The translations under genes were made by a program, and so were the position numbers. This document shows positions 2,214 to 62,483 of a stretch of DNA of 64,000 bases, piece after piece. Numbering within the stretch: position 1 is the first letter of the stretch; the number at the start of each line of letters is the position of its first letter. Under the pieces are notes generated by a model, which saw only the letters and a list, made by a program, of their open reading frames with translations, searched no databases and was not told the DNA's origin. This DNA comes from Myxococcota bacterium (lineage in GTDB: Bacteria > Myxococcota > SpSt-1050), in the NCBI GenBank assembly GCA_049969675.1, contig JBMFOP010000001.1, forward strand, positions 47,738 through 111,737, given 5' to 3'.

Positions 2214-2819
2214 ATGATTAAGAGAATTTTTTGCTTGATTTTAGTACTATTGAACCCTTTACTTTATGTAGAGTGTTCAGATAGTAACTCTGACAATAAT
2301 CTATCAGATGCGGGTGCGGATGTATTAATAAGTGGCTGCAATACAATATCCGATTGTTCAGATAAAGAGACTAAAGACTCTGTCTGTGTTAAGAAAGGTT
2401 GTGTATCAATAGGAGAGGCCTCAAAGTTTCTCCATATAGTATTTTATCCAAAATACATCAGTTCTGTGGTAAATGATATCAGTTATTTTACATATTATTT
2501 CTTTTATCCACTTGATGTGGAAGGGAATAATTTATCCTGTGAAAAACTCCTGAGTGATTTCAACTTTAGTCAAAAGAGAGACCTCAACATTATTCAATCA
2601 TATGAAAAACAGGCGACCATCTCAGCTACTGGCTCAGAGATGTATACACTCCCGTTGCCCACGATAAAAGACTCTCTATTGTTCTTCATCTTTTATCAGG
2701 AAAATGGGAGTGTAGTTGCTATTGGTTGTAGCGAGAAGATTGATACTACATCAAATGATTCAGTGGGTATCTTCCCCTGCAAACCAGAGCAGATAAATGC
2801 CTGTCTGGGAGAGTTCTAA
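2214..2819 (+). CDS. Hypothetical exported Cys-containing protein
   Basis: 201-aa ORF with hydrophobic N-terminus, DAG linker and paired Cys. Confidence 0.7.
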   Translation: MIKRIFCLILVLLNPLLYVECSDSNSDNNLSDAGADVLISGCNTISDCSDKETKDSVCVKKGCVSIGEASKFLHIVFYPKYISSVVNDISYFTYYFFYPLDVEGNNLSCEKLLSDFNFSQKRDLNIIQSYEKQATISATGSEMYTLPLPTIKDSLLFFIFYQENGSVVAIGCSEKIDTTSNDSVGIFPCKPEQINACLGEF

Positions 2820-3757
2820 TCTGAGTTACCATTTGTTCTTTCAAACTCCCTTTTTAGATTTTTATAGTTGTCCGCGGTATAGCAGAGTGTATCTGTTATC
2901 TTATAGGTCTTATCTTCAATCTCTATCCTGGTCTGTCTGATTCTACAGGCGGCATTTATAGAATGACCAATTTCACCAGAAAGTTCAACTATCTTATCAA
3001 AGTTGTCAGTATTTTCAGAGGATCTTTCAGCGGCTATCTGTGCAGAGGTAATTGTGGCATCAGTGGATTTGTCTAAGAGCTCAAAGGTCTGTTCTTCTTT
3101 AATTTTCTCTCGGAGTTGTTTTTTTGTCTTAGGATTATCTTCTGACAACTCTTTTGCATCTTTAGCAACAGCAGTTGTATCCTGCTTTATCCTCTTTGCC
3201 TCATCAAATCCAAATTTTTCATTTTTAGCAATATTTTTGGAATCTGACACAAGATTGGCAGAGCTATTTGTTAGAGAAGCACCGATTAATATGCCTTCTT
3301 CTCCTTTTTTCTGATAACCAATCAATGCACCGGTGGATGTCAATCCACTCTTAAGTGCGGTTTCTTCTATACTGTTGCCGATAGAACCTGCAGCCAGAGA
3401 GTTAGCAATATTTGCCCCTCTTTGCCCATTTTTAACCGCACCAATTGAAGTAGCAGACCCAACAGCACACATTTTTGCTCCTGCTAAAATGAATGAATCC
3501 CCTGAGCCAGTTTTGATAAAGTTATTAATGTCTCCTGATGCAACCCCAGCAGTTTTTGAGACCAAATTTAAGGTTGTCGCTCCTTCGTCATATCCCATCT
3601 GTTTTAAATTTTGAGATGCCCCTTCTATTACACCTATTCCCGCAGATGCATAATCTCCTGTTGCCACATCTAAACCGGCACATGCATAATCTCCTATGTA
3701 TTTATATTTTTCTGGTAAAAGATTATCGGTTGCATAGTTTAATAACTTTCCTAACAT
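2816..3757 (-). CDS. Hypothetical Gly/Ala-rich protein, T3SS translocator-like
   Basis: 313 aa; long G/A-rich mildly hydrophobic N-half, charged helical C-half; tightly coupled to upstream genes. Confidence 0.6.
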   Translation of the reverse strand: MLGKLLNYATDNLLPEKYKYIGDYACAGLDVATGDYASAGIGVIEGASQNLKQMGYDEGATTLNLVSKTAGVASGDINNFIKTGSGDSFILAGAKMCAVGSATSIGAVKNGQRGANIANSLAAGSIGNSIEETALKSGLTSTGALIGYQKKGEEGILIGASLTNSSANLVSDSKNIAKNEKFGFDEAKRIKQDTTAVAKDAKELSEDNPKTKKQLREKIKEEQTFELLDKSTDATITSAQIAAERSSENTDNFDKIVELSGEIGHSINAACRIRQTRIEIEDKTYKITDTLCYTADNYKNLKREFERTNGNSD

Positions 3758-3758
3758 A

Positions 3759-4511
3759 TTAGTCCTCCTTTTCTTTTAATCTATCAATTTCACTACTATT
3801 CCCTGTCCAATATGCATAAGCGTATTGATCTGTTTCTGTCATAAGCTTGAGATTTGTCTCGTTTTCCACTTTTTTGGTATTTCTTTCAATAGAGGCAGCT
3901 AATCTTATACAGTTGCTGGCATCAAAATTAAATGCATCTATATCTCCGCTCTTTAACTTCTGAACCTGTTCTCTATAGTTATCAAGCCCTTTACCTTTAT
4001 TTGGAGTCTCTTTATCTCCTCCCCTTTCTTCAATTTCTACAAAGTTTTCAAGAACAGTTAGAAGACGTTGCTTTTCAGATTCACTCATATATGGATTATT
4101 TAAAGAATCGTTGATATTTTTTATGGATGCCTGAAGGCTTTTGAGATTTCTTCTCAATTCTTCTTCGTTCTTTGCTTTATTGTTAACATTTCCCAGCCCT
4201 GCTACATTGACACCCATCCAGTCCAGAGATTTGTCCAATACAGTGCCAATAGGAACAATTGTACCAAGTGCATGACCACATAGATTAAATAGACCTTTTC
4301 TCCTTTTTCTCTTTTTTTGAGCGGACTGATATTTATTTTTATAATTTTCAATAATTTTTTCTATGTCCTGATCTGTCAACTCTGGTAAATACTCCTTTCT
4401 CTCTGTTTGATTTCTCTGGTGATTCTGTACTTTTGGTGATTGATATTGAATATCTGAATATACATTATAGATATTATCAGTACTATAATTGATGTTATTA
4501 CTAATTTCCAT
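3759..4511 (-). CDS. Hypothetical coiled-coil protein with hydrophobic segment, T3SS translocator/tip-like
   Basis: GGAGGG RBS before MEISNNINYS; N/S-rich N-terminus, GLFNLCGHALGTIVPIGTVL segment, coiled-coil. Confidence 0.6.
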   Translation of the reverse strand: MEISNNINYSTDNIYNVYSDIQYQSPKVQNHQRNQTERKEYLPELTDQDIEKIIENYKNKYQSAQKKRKRRKGLFNLCGHALGTIVPIGTVLDKSLDWMGVNVAGLGNVNNKAKNEEELRRNLKSLQASIKNINDSLNNPYMSESEKQRLLTVLENFVEIEERGGDKETPNKGKGLDNYREQVQKLKSGDIDAFNFDASNCIRLAASIERNTKKVENETNLKLMTETDQYAYAYWTGNSSEIDRLKEKED

Positions 4512-4526
4512 ATTACCCTCCATATA

Positions 4527-5072
4527 TTATTTCATATTGTGAATTATAGTCTTTAAGGCATCATCTTTAGATTTATTATAATTGGAAATTAATTCAATAT
4601 TTCTCTCTTCCATATGCATCTGGTCAATAAGTTTTTGCATAAGCGCCGGATTTTCATTTAATGCCTTAAGTAATTTTTCATCTCCATTTCTAAATGCAAT
4701 AAGGAGTTCTGTTCCGCTCTTCTTTGAATAATCCTCAGTTGATTGATTGGTAGTAGAATTATTGGCGTTTGTTGTGGAGTTGGTCTGATTATCTGATGAT
4801 GTTTTATTGGTTGGTGAAGCGGTTGTGTTAGTTGATTCATTGGAATAGTCTCTTGCCTTTGCCGGAGCAGCTTTCCATTTCCTCTTATGATCCTTTGCCT
4901 TTGCCGGAGCGGGTTTAAAATGCATCTTGCCGTTGTTCTCAACCAGGTCATCTGAGTTTGACTGGTTTACATTACCGTTAGGAGATGGCGTCTGATATAC
5001 ACCATTCTCATAAGTCATCTCTGAATCGGTCGTGTAATTGTTTGTGTTGGTCCCTGTTACTGTTGTACTCAT
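4527..5072 (-). CDS. SctF/PrgI needle-subunit-like protein with long disordered N-terminal extension
   Basis: C-terminus NPALM-x17-SNYNKSKDDALKTIIHNMK aligns ungapped with PrgI DPALL-x17-SNTVKVFKDIDAAIIQNFR; strong AGGAGG RBS. Confidence 0.65.
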   Translation of the reverse strand: MSTTVTGTNTNNYTTDSEMTYENGVYQTPSPNGNVNQSNSDDLVENNGKMHFKPAPAKAKDHKRKWKAAPAKARDYSNESTNTTASPTNKTSSDNQTNSTTNANNSTTNQSTEDYSKKSGTELLIAFRNGDEKLLKALNENPALMQKLIDQMHMEERNIELISNYNKSKDDALKTIIHNMK

Positions 5073-5139
5073 AACTTTCCTCCTTTAAATTGTTGAAAAA
5101 AAATGTTAATAAAAAAACCATCATACTTTATTTTAGCTC

Positions 5140-5154
5140 TCAATTTGTGTGCCA
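5140..5154 (-). promoter_or_regulatory. sigma54 (-24/-12) promoter
   Basis: Minus strand TGGCAC-acaaa-TTGA versus consensus TGGCAC-N5-TTGC, about 70 nt upstream of the ATG at 5072. Confidence 0.6.
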
Positions 5155-5171: not shown

Positions 5172-5597
5172 ATGAAGAGATTGGCAATAGATTATGGAAA
5201 GAGGAGGGCGGGTTTGGCGATTACAGATGATACTGGTAATGTAATAATGCCATATAAAATTATTTACTATAAAGATAGCGAAAGTTTTATTAAACAGATA
5301 AAAGAGATCTTAAGCCAACTACAACCTGCAGAGATTGTTATGGGTCTTCCACTAAATATGAATGGTTCAGAGTCTGAGATGTCAAAAGAGGTTAAGAGAA
5401 TATCTAAAAGGATAAAGAAAGATTCAAATATTGAAATAAAATTATATGACGAGAGACTGACGACCTTTGAGGCACAACAAATGCTGACAGAACAGGGGAT
5501 CTCGGCTAAAAAACAGAAAGAGATAATTGATATGTATGCCGCATATTGTATATTGAAAGGATATATTAACGAAGAATTGGAGAAGAGGAATGATTAA
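5172..5597 (+). CDS. ruvX: Holliday junction resolvase-like / pre-16S rRNA nuclease YqgF
   Basis: LAIDYG.RR.GLA..D, GLP..MNG, DERLTT motifs. Confidence 0.95.
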   Translation: MKRLAIDYGKRRAGLAITDDTGNVIMPYKIIYYKDSESFIKQIKEILSQLQPAEIVMGLPLNMNGSESEMSKEVKRISKRIKKDSNIEIKLYDERLTTFEAQQMLTEQGISAKKQKEIIDMYAAYCILKGYINEELEKRND

Positions 5598-6636
5598 AAA
5601 AATATTGTTGGCTTTATTGTTTATTGTTTTGTTGTTTGTGGTCGGCTCTGTGTATCTATATAAAAGCACCAGAGAGTTTTTACAGACGCCTTATAAGAGT
5701 GAAAAAAGAGAGGTCTCTCTTAGAATTAAGAAGGGTATGAGTGATAGTGAAGTGGCAAGGCTGATTTATGAAAAGGGACTTGTCTCCAATGAAAAGAGGT
5801 TTTATTATTTTTTGAGGTTTTTGCATAAGAAGAAAGGGCTTGAGGTGAAGTCTGGTGAATATCTTTTGAGTCCCGATATGACTCCCTGGGAGATTGCAGA
5901 GAAGATGATTAAGAGAGATGTAATCAGGTACAGGGTAACTATCCCTGAGGGACTTCGTTATGAGGAGGTGGCACAGATACTTGAGAGAGAGGGGGTTGCG
6001 ATTGCAGATGAATTTATTAATCTTTGTAAGGATAGGGTATATCTCTCTTCCCTCGGCATTGAAGGTGAGAGTTGCGAGGGGTATTTGCTTCCAGATACAT
6101 ATATGATTGAGAAGGGACTTGATGTAAAAGAGGTCTTCAAGATTATAAATGATGAATTTAAAAAGAGGGTGGGGGCTGGTTATATAGAGAAGGCAAAGGA
6201 GATGGGTTTCAGTCTCTATCAGGTGTTGATTATTGCATCTATGATTGAGAAGGAGGCAAGGCTTGATTCAGAGAGGCCAATTATTGCGTCTGTTATCTTA
6301 AACAGATTGAAACGAGATATGGGCCTTTATATTGATGCAACTGTAATATATGGTCTGATAAGAGAGAGAGGTGGATTTAATGGGAATCTTACAAGAAAAG
6401 ACCTTGATACACCGACTCGTTATAATACATATCGGGTCAAAGGACTCCCTCCAACTCCGATATGCAATCCGGGGATTAAGAGTATCAATGCGGTATTGAT
6501 GCCAGCCAGAACAAATTACCTGTATTATGTCTCAAAAAATGATGGCACGCATCATTTCTGTGAGGATATTGAATGTCACAATAAGGCTGTTAAGAGGTAT
6601 CAGATTGATTATTTTAAGAAGAATAATAAGAGATGA
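5590..6636 (+). CDS. mltG: Endolytic transglycosylase MltG (YceG)
   Basis: EGYL.PDTY, ASMIEKE, YNTY...GLPPTPICNPG motifs. Confidence 0.96.
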   Translation: MIKKILLALLFIVLLFVVGSVYLYKSTREFLQTPYKSEKREVSLRIKKGMSDSEVARLIYEKGLVSNEKRFYYFLRFLHKKKGLEVKSGEYLLSPDMTPWEIAEKMIKRDVIRYRVTIPEGLRYEEVAQILEREGVAIADEFINLCKDRVYLSSLGIEGESCEGYLLPDTYMIEKGLDVKEVFKIINDEFKKRVGAGYIEKAKEMGFSLYQVLIIASMIEKEARLDSERPIIASVILNRLKRDMGLYIDATVIYGLIRERGGFNGNLTRKDLDTPTRYNTYRVKGLPPTPICNPGIKSINAVLMPARTNYLYYVSKNDGTHHFCEDIECHNKAVKRYQIDYFKKNNKR

Positions 6637-7069
6637 GAGTTTTTTGTTTTTATCTTTGGTCTTTCTTATAATAGATATTAATTGCAAGAAAGAATTATCT
6701 CCTGAAGAGCAGATAAGGAAAAATATTGAGGAGATGGTTGAATATGCCAATAAAAGACATGTCGGCAAGATTATGGATTTTATTTCCAATGACTATAAAG
6801 ACAGCTATGGAAATAAGAGAGATTCAATAAAGGCAATTCTTATTCAGAACCTGATGTTCAGGAAGAATGTTAAGGTCTATCTAAAAAATATAGATGTAAA
6901 GGTTGAAAATCAAATTGGATTTGCTACAATTGGGATAATTGTAAAAGAGGGGGAAGGGATAATGCCAGATAATGCTGATATAATGAAAATAGAATTGAAA
7001 TTTGCGAATATGGAGAATAATTGGTTGATTATTTCTGCGATATGGAAAGGTCACCAGAGCCCTTTCTAA
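6633..7069 (+). pseudogene. NTF2-like (DUF4440-type) lipoprotein gene with a one-base frameshift in its signal peptide
   Basis: ATG 6633 overlaps the mltG stop (ATGA) but is out of frame; one extra T in the T6 run at 6640-6645 restores MRVFLFLSLVFLIIDINC-KKELSPEEQI... Confidence 0.6.
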
Positions 7070-57350: not shown

Positions 57351-59300
57351 TCATTTCATTGAACGGAGCCTCTCATCTGCAATTCTGTAGATATCTGATG
57401 ATGGAAGGGTGATTGCCTTTATATAATTTAGCTTTTTCTTTGCCTGCACTTCATCTCCCTTTGTGAGGACAAGGTTTTCATATTCCTCCTGCGCGATTCT
57501 CTCAAGTTTGTTAAAAGCCTTCAGGACATCCGGGTGTTTGGGATTCACTCTGTATGCAGACAAGAAGCTATTAAAAGCCTCCTCATAAAGACCCTTGTCA
57601 AAGTTCTGATACCCCAATTTGAGATATACTTCAATGAGCTGCCTCTCAATATCCTCTCTAAATGCAGATGGCGGATCCGATGGGACAATCTTTGTATCGT
57701 TCTCAAGTACCTCCTTAAAGGCACTGTCTGCCTGCTTTACATCCCCCTGAAGCATTGCGCTCTGTCCCTCTCTATATTTACCTTTGATCTTGAAGATCCT
57801 GAGTTGAATCTCCTCAATCATAGCCTTCTGCTTCTGATACTCCTTCTTCTTTAAGAGCTTTGAGAGCTCCAGAAGGGCGTTATCTGGTTTGCCGATATAA
57901 TAATAGACCACCGCCTTTGTTATCTCTTCATCATTGTAAATTGGAAATATTATTGTATATGGGTCATTCTTAAGTGCACCCGATTGAGAACTCTTATCAA
58001 CAAATTGAGAGAGGTCTATTGGGGTAAATTTTATCTTCTTCTGTTTCATTATCTTCTCAAGTTCGCGCTTCTCACTGATAAGGTCGGATGAGGTCGGATT
58101 GATCTTTGCAACTTTCGGGATTAAGTCATACGCCTCCTTATACCTCCTCTGCCTCCTGAGTTTGAGCATGTCTGATAACATCATACTGAATAGCTTTGAA
58201 TTGATGTCTTTGAGCCTCTGGGAGGCACTCTCAAAGAAGATAGAATCAGATGGGATCTTACCGAGGATCTCCTTTGCCTCATCAATCCTCCCTATTGAAT
58301 ACTTCATATCTCCCGACTCAAGCATCTCCTTATACTTAAATTCATTCTCAATCTTTGCCTTGAGCTTCAATCCATCATCATTTATGGGGTCCAGGTCCAG
58401 AAGCTCTGTCAAATATATCTTTGCGCCCTTGAGGTCTCCCTTCTCAATATTCTGCCTGACCTTATTTGCAAGTTCGGATATCTTTGTATCTACACTCTGA
58501 GATTTTGAATTCTGATCTACTTTTAAGCCCTGCTCTATCATCCTCTTCTGCTCTGCCCTCTTTTTAAGTGAACCAGCCACAACGAGGATAAAGAGTAGAC
58601 TGAAGACGGAGATGAGCACAATTATCATATTCTTTGAGAATTTTAATCCGCCTAACTTTTTATCCCCTTTCAAATTGGTTTTGGGTGATAGTGTATCAAC
58701 AAATTCAAACTCTACATCCCCAAACCTTACAATATTTCCATTCTGTAAAATTGCATCCTTTATTCTCTTCCCGTCAACAAATGTCCCATTTGAAGATTCA
58801 AGGTCCGAAATCTTTACAATCTCCTGACTCATATCTATCTTGATAACGGAGTGCCTTCTGGAGACTGAATTGTGAGTAATTACAATATGATTTTCATCCA
58901 CCCGCCCAACGAATATCTCATCCTCCTCAAGCGGGATGACCTCCCCTCTGAATGGTGGTGTGAGTCCCTTAAGGTAGAATCTCGCTGGCTTCTCCTCACT
59001 CTCTTCCTCATCGGAATAGATAACATTTAATGTAAACTCACCAATGTGAATCGGCTCTCCGGGCTTTACGAGCGCCGCCTCATTAATCCTCCTGCCCTGC
59101 ACAAATATCCCATTTGAAGAACCGAGGTCTTCAATAAAGACCTGAGAATCCCACATATAGATTCTTGCATGTCTTCTCGAGACCGCCGGCGAAGTTAGAA
59201 TCACATCATTATCAGAATCGCGTCCTATAAGTAATTCACCCTTTGAGAGCGAAAACTTCTTGTTGCTTCCATCGGGATATGTAACCAGCAATTCTTCCAT
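57351..59300 (-). CDS. Two-FHA-domain membrane protein with TPR region (KilD-like)
   Basis: Two GR...VSRRH...D.(G/E)SSNG.F FHA motifs, one TM helix, TPR repeats. Confidence 0.85.
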   Translation of the reverse strand: MEELLVTYPDGSNKKFSLSKGELLIGRDSDNDVILTSPAVSRRHARIYMWDSQVFIEDLGSSNGIFVQGRRINEAALVKPGEPIHIGEFTLNVIYSDEEESEEKPARFYLKGLTPPFRGEVIPLEEDEIFVGRVDENHIVITHNSVSRRHSVIKIDMSQEIVKISDLESSNGTFVDGKRIKDAILQNGNIVRFGDVEFEFVDTLSPKTNLKGDKKLGGLKFSKNMIIVLISVFSLLFILVVAGSLKKRAEQKRMIEQGLKVDQNSKSQSVDTKISELANKVRQNIEKGDLKGAKIYLTELLDLDPINDDGLKLKAKIENEFKYKEMLESGDMKYSIGRIDEAKEILGKIPSDSIFFESASQRLKDINSKLFSMMLSDMLKLRRQRRYKEAYDLIPKVAKINPTSSDLISEKRELEKIMKQKKIKFTPIDLSQFVDKSSQSGALKNDPYTIIFPIYNDEEITKAVVYYYIGKPDNALLELSKLLKKKEYQKQKAMIEEIQLRIFKIKGKYREGQSAMLQGDVKQADSAFKEVLENDTKIVPSDPPSAFREDIERQLIEVYLKLGYQNFDKGLYEEAFNSFLSAYRVNPKHPDVLKAFNKLERIAQEEYENLVLTKGDEVQAKKKLNYIKAITLPSSDIYRIADERLRSMK

Positions 59301-59322
59301 AAACTTTCCTCTGATATATCAA

Positions 59323-61008
59323 TTATTTGAAGATTGATAGGTCCAGTTCAATCCCCCTCTGTCTCAGTTCATCATAGAACCTGGGTATAAATCCAGTGGC
59401 TACAAATTCACCCAGCACCTTTCCATTCTCATCATAACCCTGCTGCTTAAAGAGGAATATATCCTGCATTGTGATAATATCTCCTTCCATTCCGGTAATC
59501 TCAGAGATATGAGTTACCTTTCTTGAACCATCCGAGAATCTGGACTGGTGCAGGATTATATTTATTGCAGAGGACACCTGCTCTCTAATCGCCTTTACTG
59601 GCAGATCAATACCAGCCATAAGGACCATCGTCTCAAGTCTCGCGAGCGCATCTCTCGGTGAATTTGCGTGTACAGTGGTAAGAGAGCCGTCGTGGCCAGT
59701 ATTCATAGCCTGTAACATATCCAGCGCCTCGCCTCCTCTGCACTCACCTACAATTATTCGGTCTGGTCTCATTCTGAGGCAGTTTCTGACCAGATCACGA
59801 ATGGTAATCTGTCCCTTCCCCTCAATATTGGGTGGTCTGGACTCAAGTTGCACCCAGTGCTCCTGTCTTAATTGCAACTCCGCTGCATCCTCAACTGTAA
59901 TAATCCTCTCATCATTTGAAATAAACTCACTCAATGCATTTAATGTTGTGGTCTTACCTGATCCAGTTCCTCCAGATATCAGTATATTTCTCCTGTAAAA
60001 GACACAGACCTTCAAGAACTCCACCATCTCAGGGCTTATTGTATTTGACCTTATGAGGTCATCCATTGTGAGTTTATCTTTCCTGAACTTTCTTATAGTG
60101 ATGGTCGGTCCCTTTATTGCGAGTGGAGGAATGATGGCATTTACTCGGGAGCCATCTTTGAGCCTGGCATCTACAAGCGGACTGGATTCATCTATCCTTC
60201 TTCCGAGAGGGGCTATGATTCTCTCTATCACACCCATCACTGCCTGGTCAGAAGAGAATGTCTTATCCGTAAGATATAACTTGCCATCTCTTTCAATATA
60301 TATCTGTCTTGCCCCATTCACCATAATTTCAGTGACAGACTTATCTGCAATAAACTCTTCAAGCGGCCCAAGACCCAGGGCCTCATCCACTATCTCTGAA
60401 ACTATCTTTGCCTTATCAACACCAGACGGATAGTTCCCCTCAGATTGTAACTGGTCTACTATCTGTGTAATCTTCTCTCGTGTCCTCTCGTATAATTCCG
60501 CTTCACCGAGCTTGCTGATATCAACCCTTCTTAAGTCCATCGCCTCAATCAGTCTTGAATGCACCTCTCTCTTGAAAGCAGAGATTATCTCCAGATCCTG
60601 ATTCTTTGCCTGAGACCTCTGTACTGCAGGGGGATTCCGGGGCATATTTGTCTTTGCCGATGGAGCTACCGGCGGAGGGGGCGGCGTCCTCTGCCTTACC
60701 TCTAACGGAGCCGGTTTGGGGGCTGAGCTCAGAAGGACAATCTCATATTCACCTATGCTTATCACATCATTGGGCTTTACAACCACCGGGCCATTAATCT
60801 GCTTCCCATTTACAAATGTACCGTTTGTACTCCCCAGATCCATCAGCACATATCTGCCGTCCTTAACCAGAAATCTCGCATGCCTCTTACTCACACTTGG
60901 AACGGGAAGGACAAGGTCGTTCTCCTGTGCCCTTCCGATAAATATCGTCTGCTTATTTATCTCCTCAATCCTCTCCTTGCCCTGACCTGAAATCTTCAAC
61001 CTGAACAT
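59323..61008 (-). CDS. cpaF: FHA-fused Tad pilus assembly ATPase (CpaF/TadA, KilF-like)
   Basis: N-terminal FHA, Pro linker, G.GPLE, GGTGSGKTT, LRMRPDRIIVGE.RG.EA, AMNTGH.GS. Confidence 0.92.
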   Translation of the reverse strand: MFRLKISGQGKERIEEINKQTIFIGRAQENDLVLPVPSVSKRHARFLVKDGRYVLMDLGSTNGTFVNGKQINGPVVVKPNDVISIGEYEIVLLSSAPKPAPLEVRQRTPPPPPVAPSAKTNMPRNPPAVQRSQAKNQDLEIISAFKREVHSRLIEAMDLRRVDISKLGEAELYERTREKITQIVDQLQSEGNYPSGVDKAKIVSEIVDEALGLGPLEEFIADKSVTEIMVNGARQIYIERDGKLYLTDKTFSSDQAVMGVIERIIAPLGRRIDESSPLVDARLKDGSRVNAIIPPLAIKGPTITIRKFRKDKLTMDDLIRSNTISPEMVEFLKVCVFYRRNILISGGTGSGKTTTLNALSEFISNDERIITVEDAAELQLRQEHWVQLESRPPNIEGKGQITIRDLVRNCLRMRPDRIIVGECRGGEALDMLQAMNTGHDGSLTTVHANSPRDALARLETMVLMAGIDLPVKAIREQVSSAINIILHQSRFSDGSRKVTHISEITGMEGDIITMQDIFLFKQQGYDENGKVLGEFVATGFIPRFYDELRQRGIELDLSIFK

Positions 61009-61025
61009 AAAAACCTCAGAAATAA

Positions 61026-62483
61026 CTAATCAAAGATATTGAATTTGACCTCACCCTTCGCCTTCTTGTATCTCGCCTTTATATCATCTATCATCTCCTT
61101 CACCCTCGGGGTATTTGGTGAGACAATCCTTGGAGTTACAAAGATTGCCAGATCCGTCTTCTTCTCCTGAAAATTTCTGGATTTGAAGAGCTCACCAATT
61201 ATCGGTATATGTCCCAAAAGTGGGAGTTTGCTCACATCCTTTGATTCATCATTGTGAAATAATCCAGAGAGAATAATCGTCTCACCGTGTTTTACAGTCA
61301 CTTTGGTAGATATCTTCCTCATCTTAAAACCGGGTATAGAGACACCAGAATTCGGGAGCATAATTGAAAGCGATCTATCCACATCACTTACCTCAGCATC
61401 TATACTCGTCTGAATATTCCCGAGAGAATCTGCATTTGGAGTAATCTCAAGCTTAACCCCAAAGTCTTTATATTCCACAGATGCAGAATCTCTGGTGATT
61501 AACGGAATAGGGATCTGACCACCTGATAAGAAACTCGCCTTCTCACCACTCGCAGAGATAAGTTTTGGCTGTGCAAGCACCCTTGAATATCCGTCATTAA
61601 ATTGAAATCCAAATGCAAAATCTGCACCTGCTGATGCGATTCCATTTGTAGTTATCTGCCTTGAAGACTCCCCCGAACCTTTGATAACATTCACATCCTG
61701 ATACTGAATGTTCCCTTGAAGATTTCCAGTTATATCAGTTGGATATTTAATTCCTATTTTGTCAAATGAGCCCCTCTTTATCTCTACAAATTGAACCTCC
61801 AGAAGGACCATCCTCTTTATTCCTATTGTAACCAGATTCTCCACCTGCTCACCCACAGCCCTGATTATAAGATCCAGCTTCTTCATATCCTCTGGCGATT
61901 CCACAGAACCTTCGAGATAGGCTGTATTGCCAACCACATTTGCATTTACATCCTTTATCCCATTTCTCTTTAAAGTTTCAATAAGCGCATTTGCAGAGAG
62001 TCTCTTGGCATTTGGGTTCAGTTTTACCATATTGGTGACATTCCCATAAAGTTTTGTAAGTTGAACCACGCGGTCATAGTCTTCGGTGGTAATGGCGTTG
62101 CCTTCAATAATTACCTGTTCTCCTACCTGATTCACCTTGATACCTTCTCTGTCTCCCATAAGACGTTTTACATCTGCCGCTGTAGCTTTCTGCGAAGAAG
62201 GTGTTACCTTGATTGAATAATCAATCTGCTTATTCCCCTTAAAGATCACTACATTTGTCTCACCCGGACCAACTGCTCTGATGATTATCTGATTCCCAAC
62301 TGCCGACACAGTTGCCACCGAAGAATCACCCTCTACCACCTTTGTTGCACCGGGGACAGACAATACCCTCTGCTGCCCTACGCCCAGAATAATCTGATTG
62401 GTCTGACCGGTCAACCCCTCATCGGCTGCGTAAAGTGATGTGCAAAGGATACCAAAAACTGAGATAAAAAAGATTTTTTTCAT
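61026..62483 (-). CDS. cpaC: Tad secretin CpaC/RcpA (KilC-like)
   Basis: Signal peptide, pilus N-domain, BON-like region, A.F.SGG.IP, FGV.L..TP, P.LG.IPIIG.LFKS, IFVTP. Confidence 0.9.
   Translation of the reverse strand: MKKIFFISVFGILCTSLYAADEGLTGQTNQIILGVGQQRVLSVPGATKVVEGDSSVATVSAVGNQIIIRAVGPGETNVVIFKGNKQIDYSIKVTPSSQKATAADVKRLMGDREGIKVNQVGEQVIIEGNAITTEDYDRVVQLTKLYGNVTNMVKLNPNAKRLSANALIETLKRNGIKDVNANVVGNTAYLEGSVESPEDMKKLDLIIRAVGEQVENLVTIGIKRMVLLEVQFVEIKRGSFDKIGIKYPTDITGNLQGNIQYQDVNVIKGSGESSRQITTNGIASAGADFAFGFQFNDGYSRVLAQPKLISASGEKASFLSGGQIPIPLITRDSASVEYKDFGVKLEITPNADSLGNIQTSIDAEVSDVDRSLSIMLPNSGVSIPGFKMRKISTKVTVKHGETIILSGLFHNDESKDVSKLPLLGHIPIIGELFKSRNFQEKKTDLAIFVTPRIVSPNTPRVKEMIDDIKARYKKAKGEVKFNIFD

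Follow-up and report, generated by a model that had tools for sequence, protein, structure and literature searches.

The type III secretion systems (T3SSs) of myxobacteria are described as having no SctF, the needle protein, which is presumed lost; this loss belongs to the standard account of T3SS evolution (accessible parts of PMC3459982). Myxococcus has a long-locus system (T3SS*) and a short-locus one (T3SS(2)), both in print without needle and translocon genes in the portions of the papers available. How T3SS* delivers lytic cargo without a needle, a translocon or a secretin is stated to be open (PMC10433427, PMC12075869 and PMC12428579, all in excerpt), and T3SS(2) is reported to be dispensable for prey killing (PMC10196010, in excerpt); not every copy of the gene family treated below therefore need concern predation. 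In the literature searched, with supplements and most subscription papers outside that scope, we found no report of an SctF-like gene in myxobacteria. Here we examined a three-gene cassette beside ruvX in 64,000 nucleotides of a Myxococcota bacterium (contig JBMFOP010000001.1, positions 47,738 to 111,737; the whole stretch is called the window). The first gene of the cassette is a member of a myxobacterial family that is widespread and has gone unannotated. The tail of this family appears to be a remote relative of the needle protein, which suggests that systems reported to have no needle may nevertheless retain genes for needle-type components. The features of the cassette are as follows.

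4527-5072, minus strand: gene 1, 181 residues; variable low-complexity N-terminal part and conserved SctF-like C-terminal tail; the second, ruvX-side copy of the family
4530-4658, minus strand: SctF-like tail (gene 1 residues 139-181), aligned by HHalign; one long helix in the AlphaFold2 model
4848-4919, minus strand: 10-residue repeat, two copies (gene 1 residues 52-61 and 66-75), of the type aromatic-x-x-APAKAKD
3759-4523, minus strand: gene 2, 254 residues; predicted soluble helical bundle, order-restricted, no known family matched
2816-3757, minus strand: gene 3, 313 residues; Gly/Ala-rich with five GxxxG motifs, order-restricted, no known family matched; candidate membrane-inserting substrate
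5079-5083, minus strand: ribosome-binding site GGAGG of gene 1, read from the sequence and kept in the relatives G001-G003
5141-5154, minus strand: sigma54-type -24/-12 site TGGCAC-N5-TTGA, overlapping the region immediately before ruvX

The tail and the needle protein

The C-terminal helix of the family is, as judged by profile comparison, probably a remote homologue of that of SctF. When three family profiles were compared with six natural SctF sequences by HHalign, the probabilities were 92%, 96% and 82%, with pairwise E values (not corrected for library size) of 6.6e-7 for the profile of the own order, 9.2e-9 and 9.8e-6; the scores of 36, 45 and 30 stood against shuffled maxima of 14-17, and the alignments reached both C-termini. 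A pooled family profile, A6, placed all six natural SctF sequences at ranks 3-8 of 9,842 sequences (best E 2.6e-6), with the control SctI at rank 279 or lower; narrower family profiles ranked SctF less well, from 3 to 526. Against the PDB at E ≤ 10, seven of the ten A6 matches were needle-related (PrgI entries, or a chain of 43 residues from a complex of needle protein and chaperone; the best E was 0.015), and alignments A1 and A10 gave weak needle matches only. The needle family PF09392, searched over five genomes at E ≤ 10, hit eight proteins, namely five family members, two SctI and one other; the best family member reached 20.7 bits, the curated cut-off being 29.4. Also, a language-model feature search of the Atlas returned T3SS_needle_F clusters at 0.90 and 0.89, with a family share of 23-27%. 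An SctI-like nature of the tail was considered and dropped (HHalign E 0.12-0.57), and a tree of the tails, in which the deep nodes were weak and two SctF rows were misaligned, was not used.

A sequence-only reading of this DNA had noted that gene 1 ends like the needle protein in a gapless register. The C-terminus was quoted correctly and, indeed, the tail can be aligned over its whole length with residues 39-83 of MxiH. In an AlphaFold2 model of the 70-residue C-terminal piece, a helix spans residues 31-69 (pLDDT 84.7) after two short helices. In terms of SctF (the MxiH, PrgI, AscF and SsaG type; PF09392 and TIGR02105), gene 1 is thus alike in its last ~45 residues, which align to the very end, and in having no Sec signal; it also has a paralog that stands where sctF is usually found, ahead of sctI-sctJ. 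Gene 1 is unlike SctF in that it lies below all curated cut-offs and away from the apparatus genes, not beside sctI-sctJ, and in that its 181 residues with a long low-complexity N-terminus contrast with the 71-85 residues of SctF. Taken by itself, the window protein shows a likeness to SctF that we grade as not significant, and we do not assign it to SctF proper.

All three proteins had been said to have no Sec signal, and this holds: no signal-peptide-like hydrophobic run was seen, the maximal 10-residue hydropathy in the first 35 residues being -0.21, -0.20 and 1.09 for genes 1, 2 and 3, respectively, versus 3.02 for a neighbouring lipoprotein-like open reading frame (ORF). The first two proteins do start rich in Ser, Thr and Asn, as claimed (14 and 10 of the first 25 residues; only three in the third).

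We refer to the source genome (3.05 Mb, 99.9% complete) as G000 and to the relatives compared as G001-G004; scanning of genome contigs found three close relatives. The repeat of gene 1 occurs in two copies in the window, four in each of G001 and G002, two in G003 and none in G004, and no other ORF of G000 matched it. An unrelated lipoprotein-like ORF of G002 (L012:982-1803) holds one APAKARD-type copy.

The family at secretion loci of the phylum

When a profile of the five cassette tails was run over 9,829 ORFs, the only hit besides gene 1 itself was the head gene of an operon on contig C49 (E 1.5e-5; next 0.25). This paralog (G000:C49:11938-12453, L017:626-1141) has a perfect sigma54-type site upstream and stands directly before sctI-sctJ, the operon order being family gene, sctI, sctJ, a 70-residue ORF, sctL and sctN. 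It would be the SctF of G000 by position and is the best candidate for its true needle gene. The cassette had been called an orphan and gene 1 the needle gene; given this paralog in the sctF position, the first description is wrong and the second unsupported, and the family is moreover phylum-wide, with the ruvX-side copy recurring in other families.

Among 301 genomes of the phylum, to which labels of database homologues point as Myxococcota, the family is present in 253 and SctI in 249, both occurring in 246, neither in 45, the family only in seven and SctI only in three; related genomes are not independent in these counts, and both include G183, an unpublished genome. In the database, 2,817 representatives at 50% identity match the family at E ≤ 0.001. 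Five genomes gave 19 family matches, the surroundings of 12 of which were examined. The order family gene-sctI-sctJ is found at loci L019, L070, L076 and L080; among known systems, three SPI-1-type loci have the order needle-sctI-sctJ, and chaperone genes interrupt it in two more loci. Short loci headed by a family gene directly before sctI occur in G112 and G059. Long loci are headed by a family gene followed by a tetratricopeptide repeat (TPR) gene in G112, and the copy of G140 lies at the same distance from sctI. Family genes thus appear to head long, T3SS*-type loci, contrary to the published loss of SctF; G112 and G140 are probably Myxococcaceae-like, as their locus layout suggests, and both locus types in them carry family genes.

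The long locus of G112 opens (L071:12710-14994) with a 189-residue family gene and the TPR gene before sctI, and a further ORF, also before sctI, resembles a FliA-type sigma factor. In the sctU-sctV interval of the long T3SS locus of G140 (L075:3726-4820) lie three identical tandem family genes of 72 residues, which match PF09392 weakly but over nearly its full length (positions 7-69 of the 71; E 0.085) and are the only family members of needle size (about 70-90 residues). G053 has three family copies with no recognised sct gene adjoining; two of them stand in tandem with a TPR gene (L078:8732-10217). Even strongly reduced genomes such as this one (1.8 Mb) have kept the family.

Across the family, the SctF-like helix ends at the C-terminus in all members, and the N-terminal parts range from about 25 to 500 residues. 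Copies divergent from ruvX are present in G112 and G059. From 57 ruvX-positive genomes, 40 further ones were inspected and seven had a family gene beside ruvX, so this position is common to some families only; a TPR gene follows it in all seven, and the two TPR proteins tested both had LcrH/SycD as their best NCBIfam match, below cut-off. Three ruvX-side proteins (L073:8044-10068, L113 and L114) are 419-549 residues long and join NolX/HrpK1-like repeats to an SctF-like tail, ahead of an LcrH/SycD-like gene. These long proteins match NolX and HrpK1, at best with 26.3 bits against a cut-off of 26.1, and are candidates for a tip or translocator in a system supposed to have no translocon.

The HrpA/HrpF pilus subunits share with gene 1 a low-complexity N-terminus and a conserved C-terminal helix, and five of the 26 family tails matched HrpA_pilin (best E 2.8e-4) and two HrpF, whereas the sole protein tested from an HrpA position came at ranks 196-426 among 9,842 sequences and the window protein had no such match. 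The tip-filament proteins Bsp22 and EspA offer an analogy for the ruvX-side copy, as a second T3SS substrate that forms filaments, is longer than the first, and has a helix at its C-terminal end and a chaperone of its own (PMC12607632, in excerpt), but gene 1 does not have the long N-terminal helix. Pfam and profile scans of gene 1 and family members gave no EspA match. The Bsp22 tail is one that we assume to resemble the family; a Bsp22-like reference sequence was sought among plasmids, and none was found there.

A search of the genome for the export apparatus and rpoN, as proposed by the sequence-only reading, found both. Profile scans of G000 detected SctR, SctJ and the T3SS ATPase, SctI-like and SctL-like genes, and a single SctV-like gene (630.6 bits for SctV versus 565.6 for FlhA, both below cut-off), with no flagellin match; the labels SctO, Q, S, T and U on contig C69 are ones that we take from position and presumed likeness. 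From these profile matches we read G000 as encoding a single, non-flagellar T3SS. Its sct genes are spread over three loci on three contigs, two of the loci being multi-gene. Like T3SS* and T3SS(2), G000 has the secretin-less set, SctN and SctL, and a Tad-type cluster; unlike them, the system is single, is split over three contigs and has sigma54-type promoters. The SctV of G000 scores 440 and 401 bits with long-locus copies versus 317 with the short-locus one, and its SctR 197 and 195 versus 163; since the core proteins are nearer the long-locus copies, a link to T3SS* is plausible, though indirect.

Promoter-like site, partner genes and proposed role

The TGGCAC-N5-TTGA site reported in front of the cassette was located at 5141-5154 and is the sole such match in the window, but matches were found in 21 of 100 shuffles, so that a single site is within chance. 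At the matching place, a GG-N10-TTG(C/A) site is present in all four relatives. The window site has the GG and the fixed spacing with GA at -12, which is GC in G001 and G002, the perfect TTGC form being that of G001. Both multi-gene sct operons of G000 begin with TGGCAC-N5-TTGC, and the TTGA form also lies upstream of the sct operon head in two of the three close relatives; no such site was seen before sctV. Genome-wide, TGGCAC-N5-TTG is not enriched (29 versus 7-33 at other spacings), but the CTGGCAC form is (15 versus 2-9). Thus, a sigma54-type site precedes the cassette and both multi-gene sct operons, and these may be co-expressed under sigma54. The separate regulation once proposed for the cassette is not borne out, because a site of this type also stands before the two multi-gene sct operons.

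Genes 2 and 3 are confined to the order of G000. Gene 2 was found in five of the 301 genomes, with 11 database homologues, and gene 3 also in five, plus one marginal match (E 4.3e-4), with five database homologues. Both had been described as hydrophobic, Gly/Ala-rich and SctB/SctE-like. The composition holds for gene 3, with 21-29% Gly/Ala and 5-6 GxxxG motifs in all four homologues, where the best 19-residue hydropathy is 1.37-1.43 at differing places; it is compatible with a glycine-zipper membrane-active protein. It fails for gene 2, which has 10% Gly/Ala and a single hydrophobic stretch (residues 78-96, other peaks below 1.0); this stretch is an insertion present in four and absent from eight of 12 aligned homologues, the shorter of which are acidic. 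The resemblance to SctB/SctE found no backing: no translocator family was among the listed profile matches for 12 gene 2 and seven gene 3 homologues, single-sequence Pfam and NCBIfam scans gave no meaningful match for either, and PDB sequence searches listed no translocator match. The structure search suggested for gene 2 was run with a helical-bundle model (pLDDT 69) and gave no clear match (best Z 5.6, root-mean-square deviation (rmsd) 4.2, 103 aligned), with no tip or translocator chain among the listed matches. An Atlas search with gene 3 gave a best feature score of 0.84 and a best TM of 0.39. When the gene 2 bundle was predicted in complex with the tail, the score was 0.01 and the mark 0.32. 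No LcrH/SycD-class chaperone gene lies in the cassette, and none above cut-off was matched in G000. A translocator reading is therefore unsupported for gene 2 and unproven for gene 3. Homology of the gene 3 N-terminus to that of the long ruvX-side proteins was considered and dropped, as nothing appeared at E<0.05.

We regard it as fairly probable that the gene 1 product is a substrate of the T3SS of this genome, serves as an accessory subunit of its filament (distal or at the tip) and is accompanied by two order-restricted partners. In this model, sigma54 would switch on the sct operons and the cassette together, the export gate would secrete the C49 copy, which would polymerise on the SctI rod through its tail, and the window protein, joining through its own copy of this tail, would form a distal, minor or tip subunit and display its variable repeat-bearing N-terminal part outward. 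Position and composition suggest that gene 2 might be a soluble partner in place of the TPR chaperone gene of other families, and gene 3 a co-exported glycine-zipper substrate that possibly inserts into membranes. The genes, their paralogy, distribution and order, and the remote homology are read from sequence; expression, secretion, polymerisation and binding are putative.

Several results weigh against this assignment. The homology is confined to the C-terminal helix (last ~45 residues); the window protein alone gave no needle match in Pfam and NCBIfam, PF09392 found nothing in G000 or G004, and a six-SctF profile placed the window protein only 10th in its own genome (E 7.7). Alignment A2 gave no needle match in the PDB, and a single-template comparison reached a probability of 14%. 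The proposed structure search with gene 1 put PrgI first in Foldseek, yet with E 4.8, TM 0.36 and rmsd 6.4 over 65 columns; the SctF hairpin was not recovered, the model having two short helices where SctF has one N-terminal helix, and a wide fold search gave no clear match (best Z 5.2, unrelated). The sigma54-type site was not found at any of eight loci from other families, no family gene of G000 was seen paired with a dedicated small TPR gene, and none of the three secretins of G000 lies within the three sct loci. Furthermore, the choice of tip over needle would follow from position and length.

The lack of a secretin at the sct loci would suit a tail that serves as a docking or export element, the protein forming a short periplasmic stub or travelling as cargo to another outer-membrane route, such as a Tad/Kil secretin, with no extracellular needle. 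One of the secretins indeed belongs to a Tad-type cluster inside the window (57351-62483), the N-terminal parts vary widely in length, and a Kil pilus has been observed whose tips are proposed as carriers (accessible parts of PMC12075869). We consider this unlikely, as the helix runs precisely to the C-terminus in every member, as it does in needle subunits, and the 72-residue copies of G140 have plain needle-subunit size. Still less likely is the proposal of a module under its own control in which gene 1 supplies the major needle subunit and the other two genes a translocon pair of the SctB/SctE kind. The asparagine-proline-alanine-leucine turn of MxiH is indeed better preserved in the window tail than in the operon copy, gene 3 homologues have the composition given above, and translocators are fast-evolving and easily missed (PMC3459982, in excerpt); however, the C49 operon holds a better-placed paralog, gene 2 is modelled as a soluble bundle and its hydrophobic stretch is not conserved, gene 3 peaks at a hydropathy of only ~1.4, no translocator family was matched, and the promoter type is that of the sct operons. 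That the likeness to SctF is mere convergence of an amphipathic helix, the cassette being unrelated to type III secretion, seems very improbable: single-sequence scores are not significant and long helices resemble many things, but co-occurrence and adjacency with sctI-sctJ, chaperone-like neighbours and the ranking control are independent of helix shape and hence speak against it.

Beyond the accessory-subunit model for gene 1, we tentatively raise, at somewhat less than even chances, the broader possibility that the T3SSs of Myxococcota do have a needle, the predation T3SS* among them. A divergent SctF would head the sctI-sctJ operon, and one or more paralogs at other sites would bear variable heads (repeats in the window protein, NolX/HrpK1-like domains in another family) on the same polymerising tail. 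The resulting filament would be modular, with exchangeable tips, and would reach prey even though no secretin is dedicated to it. If true, this would reverse the published inference of SctF loss for the earliest-branching non-flagellar T3SS lineage. An SctF-like family found phylum-wide in the sctF position points to specific genes for study in a predator that is genetically tractable and non-pathogenic. The cassette itself is the second copy of the family paired with lineage-specific partners, and the surprise lies mostly in the family that it exposed.

Surroundings of the cassette

The cassette was described as three tightly linked minus-strand genes between rho and ruvX. The ORFs were confirmed, with 3 nucleotides between genes 1 and 2 and 1 between genes 2 and 3, and the ruvX side is right, but an ORF intervenes on the rho side. 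The two neighbours are as follows.

5172-5597, plus strand: ruvX, divergent from gene 1; conserved genomic anchor of the ruvX-side copy
2214-2819, plus strand: context ORF, 201 residues, lipoprotein-like, convergent; between rho and the cassette

A check of synteny found the cassette intact in G001, G002 and G004, and gene 3 split around masked bases in G003. The base composition of the cassette is that of its surroundings. The 201-residue ORF contains cysteine, overlaps the convergent gene 3 by 4 nucleotides and had no match in a Pfam scan; it is found next to rho genus-wide (G001-G003). The Tad/Kil-type cluster at 57351-62483 encodes an FHA-TPR protein, an FHA-bearing TadA-like ATPase and a secretin, labels partly read from the sequence. 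Elsewhere in G000, the sctV contig carries a 3,704-residue ORF (G000:C48:13684-24798) with an acidic repetitive region, and a segment upstream of the sctO-U operon (G000:C69, ~6290-6640) resembles a tmRNA gene.

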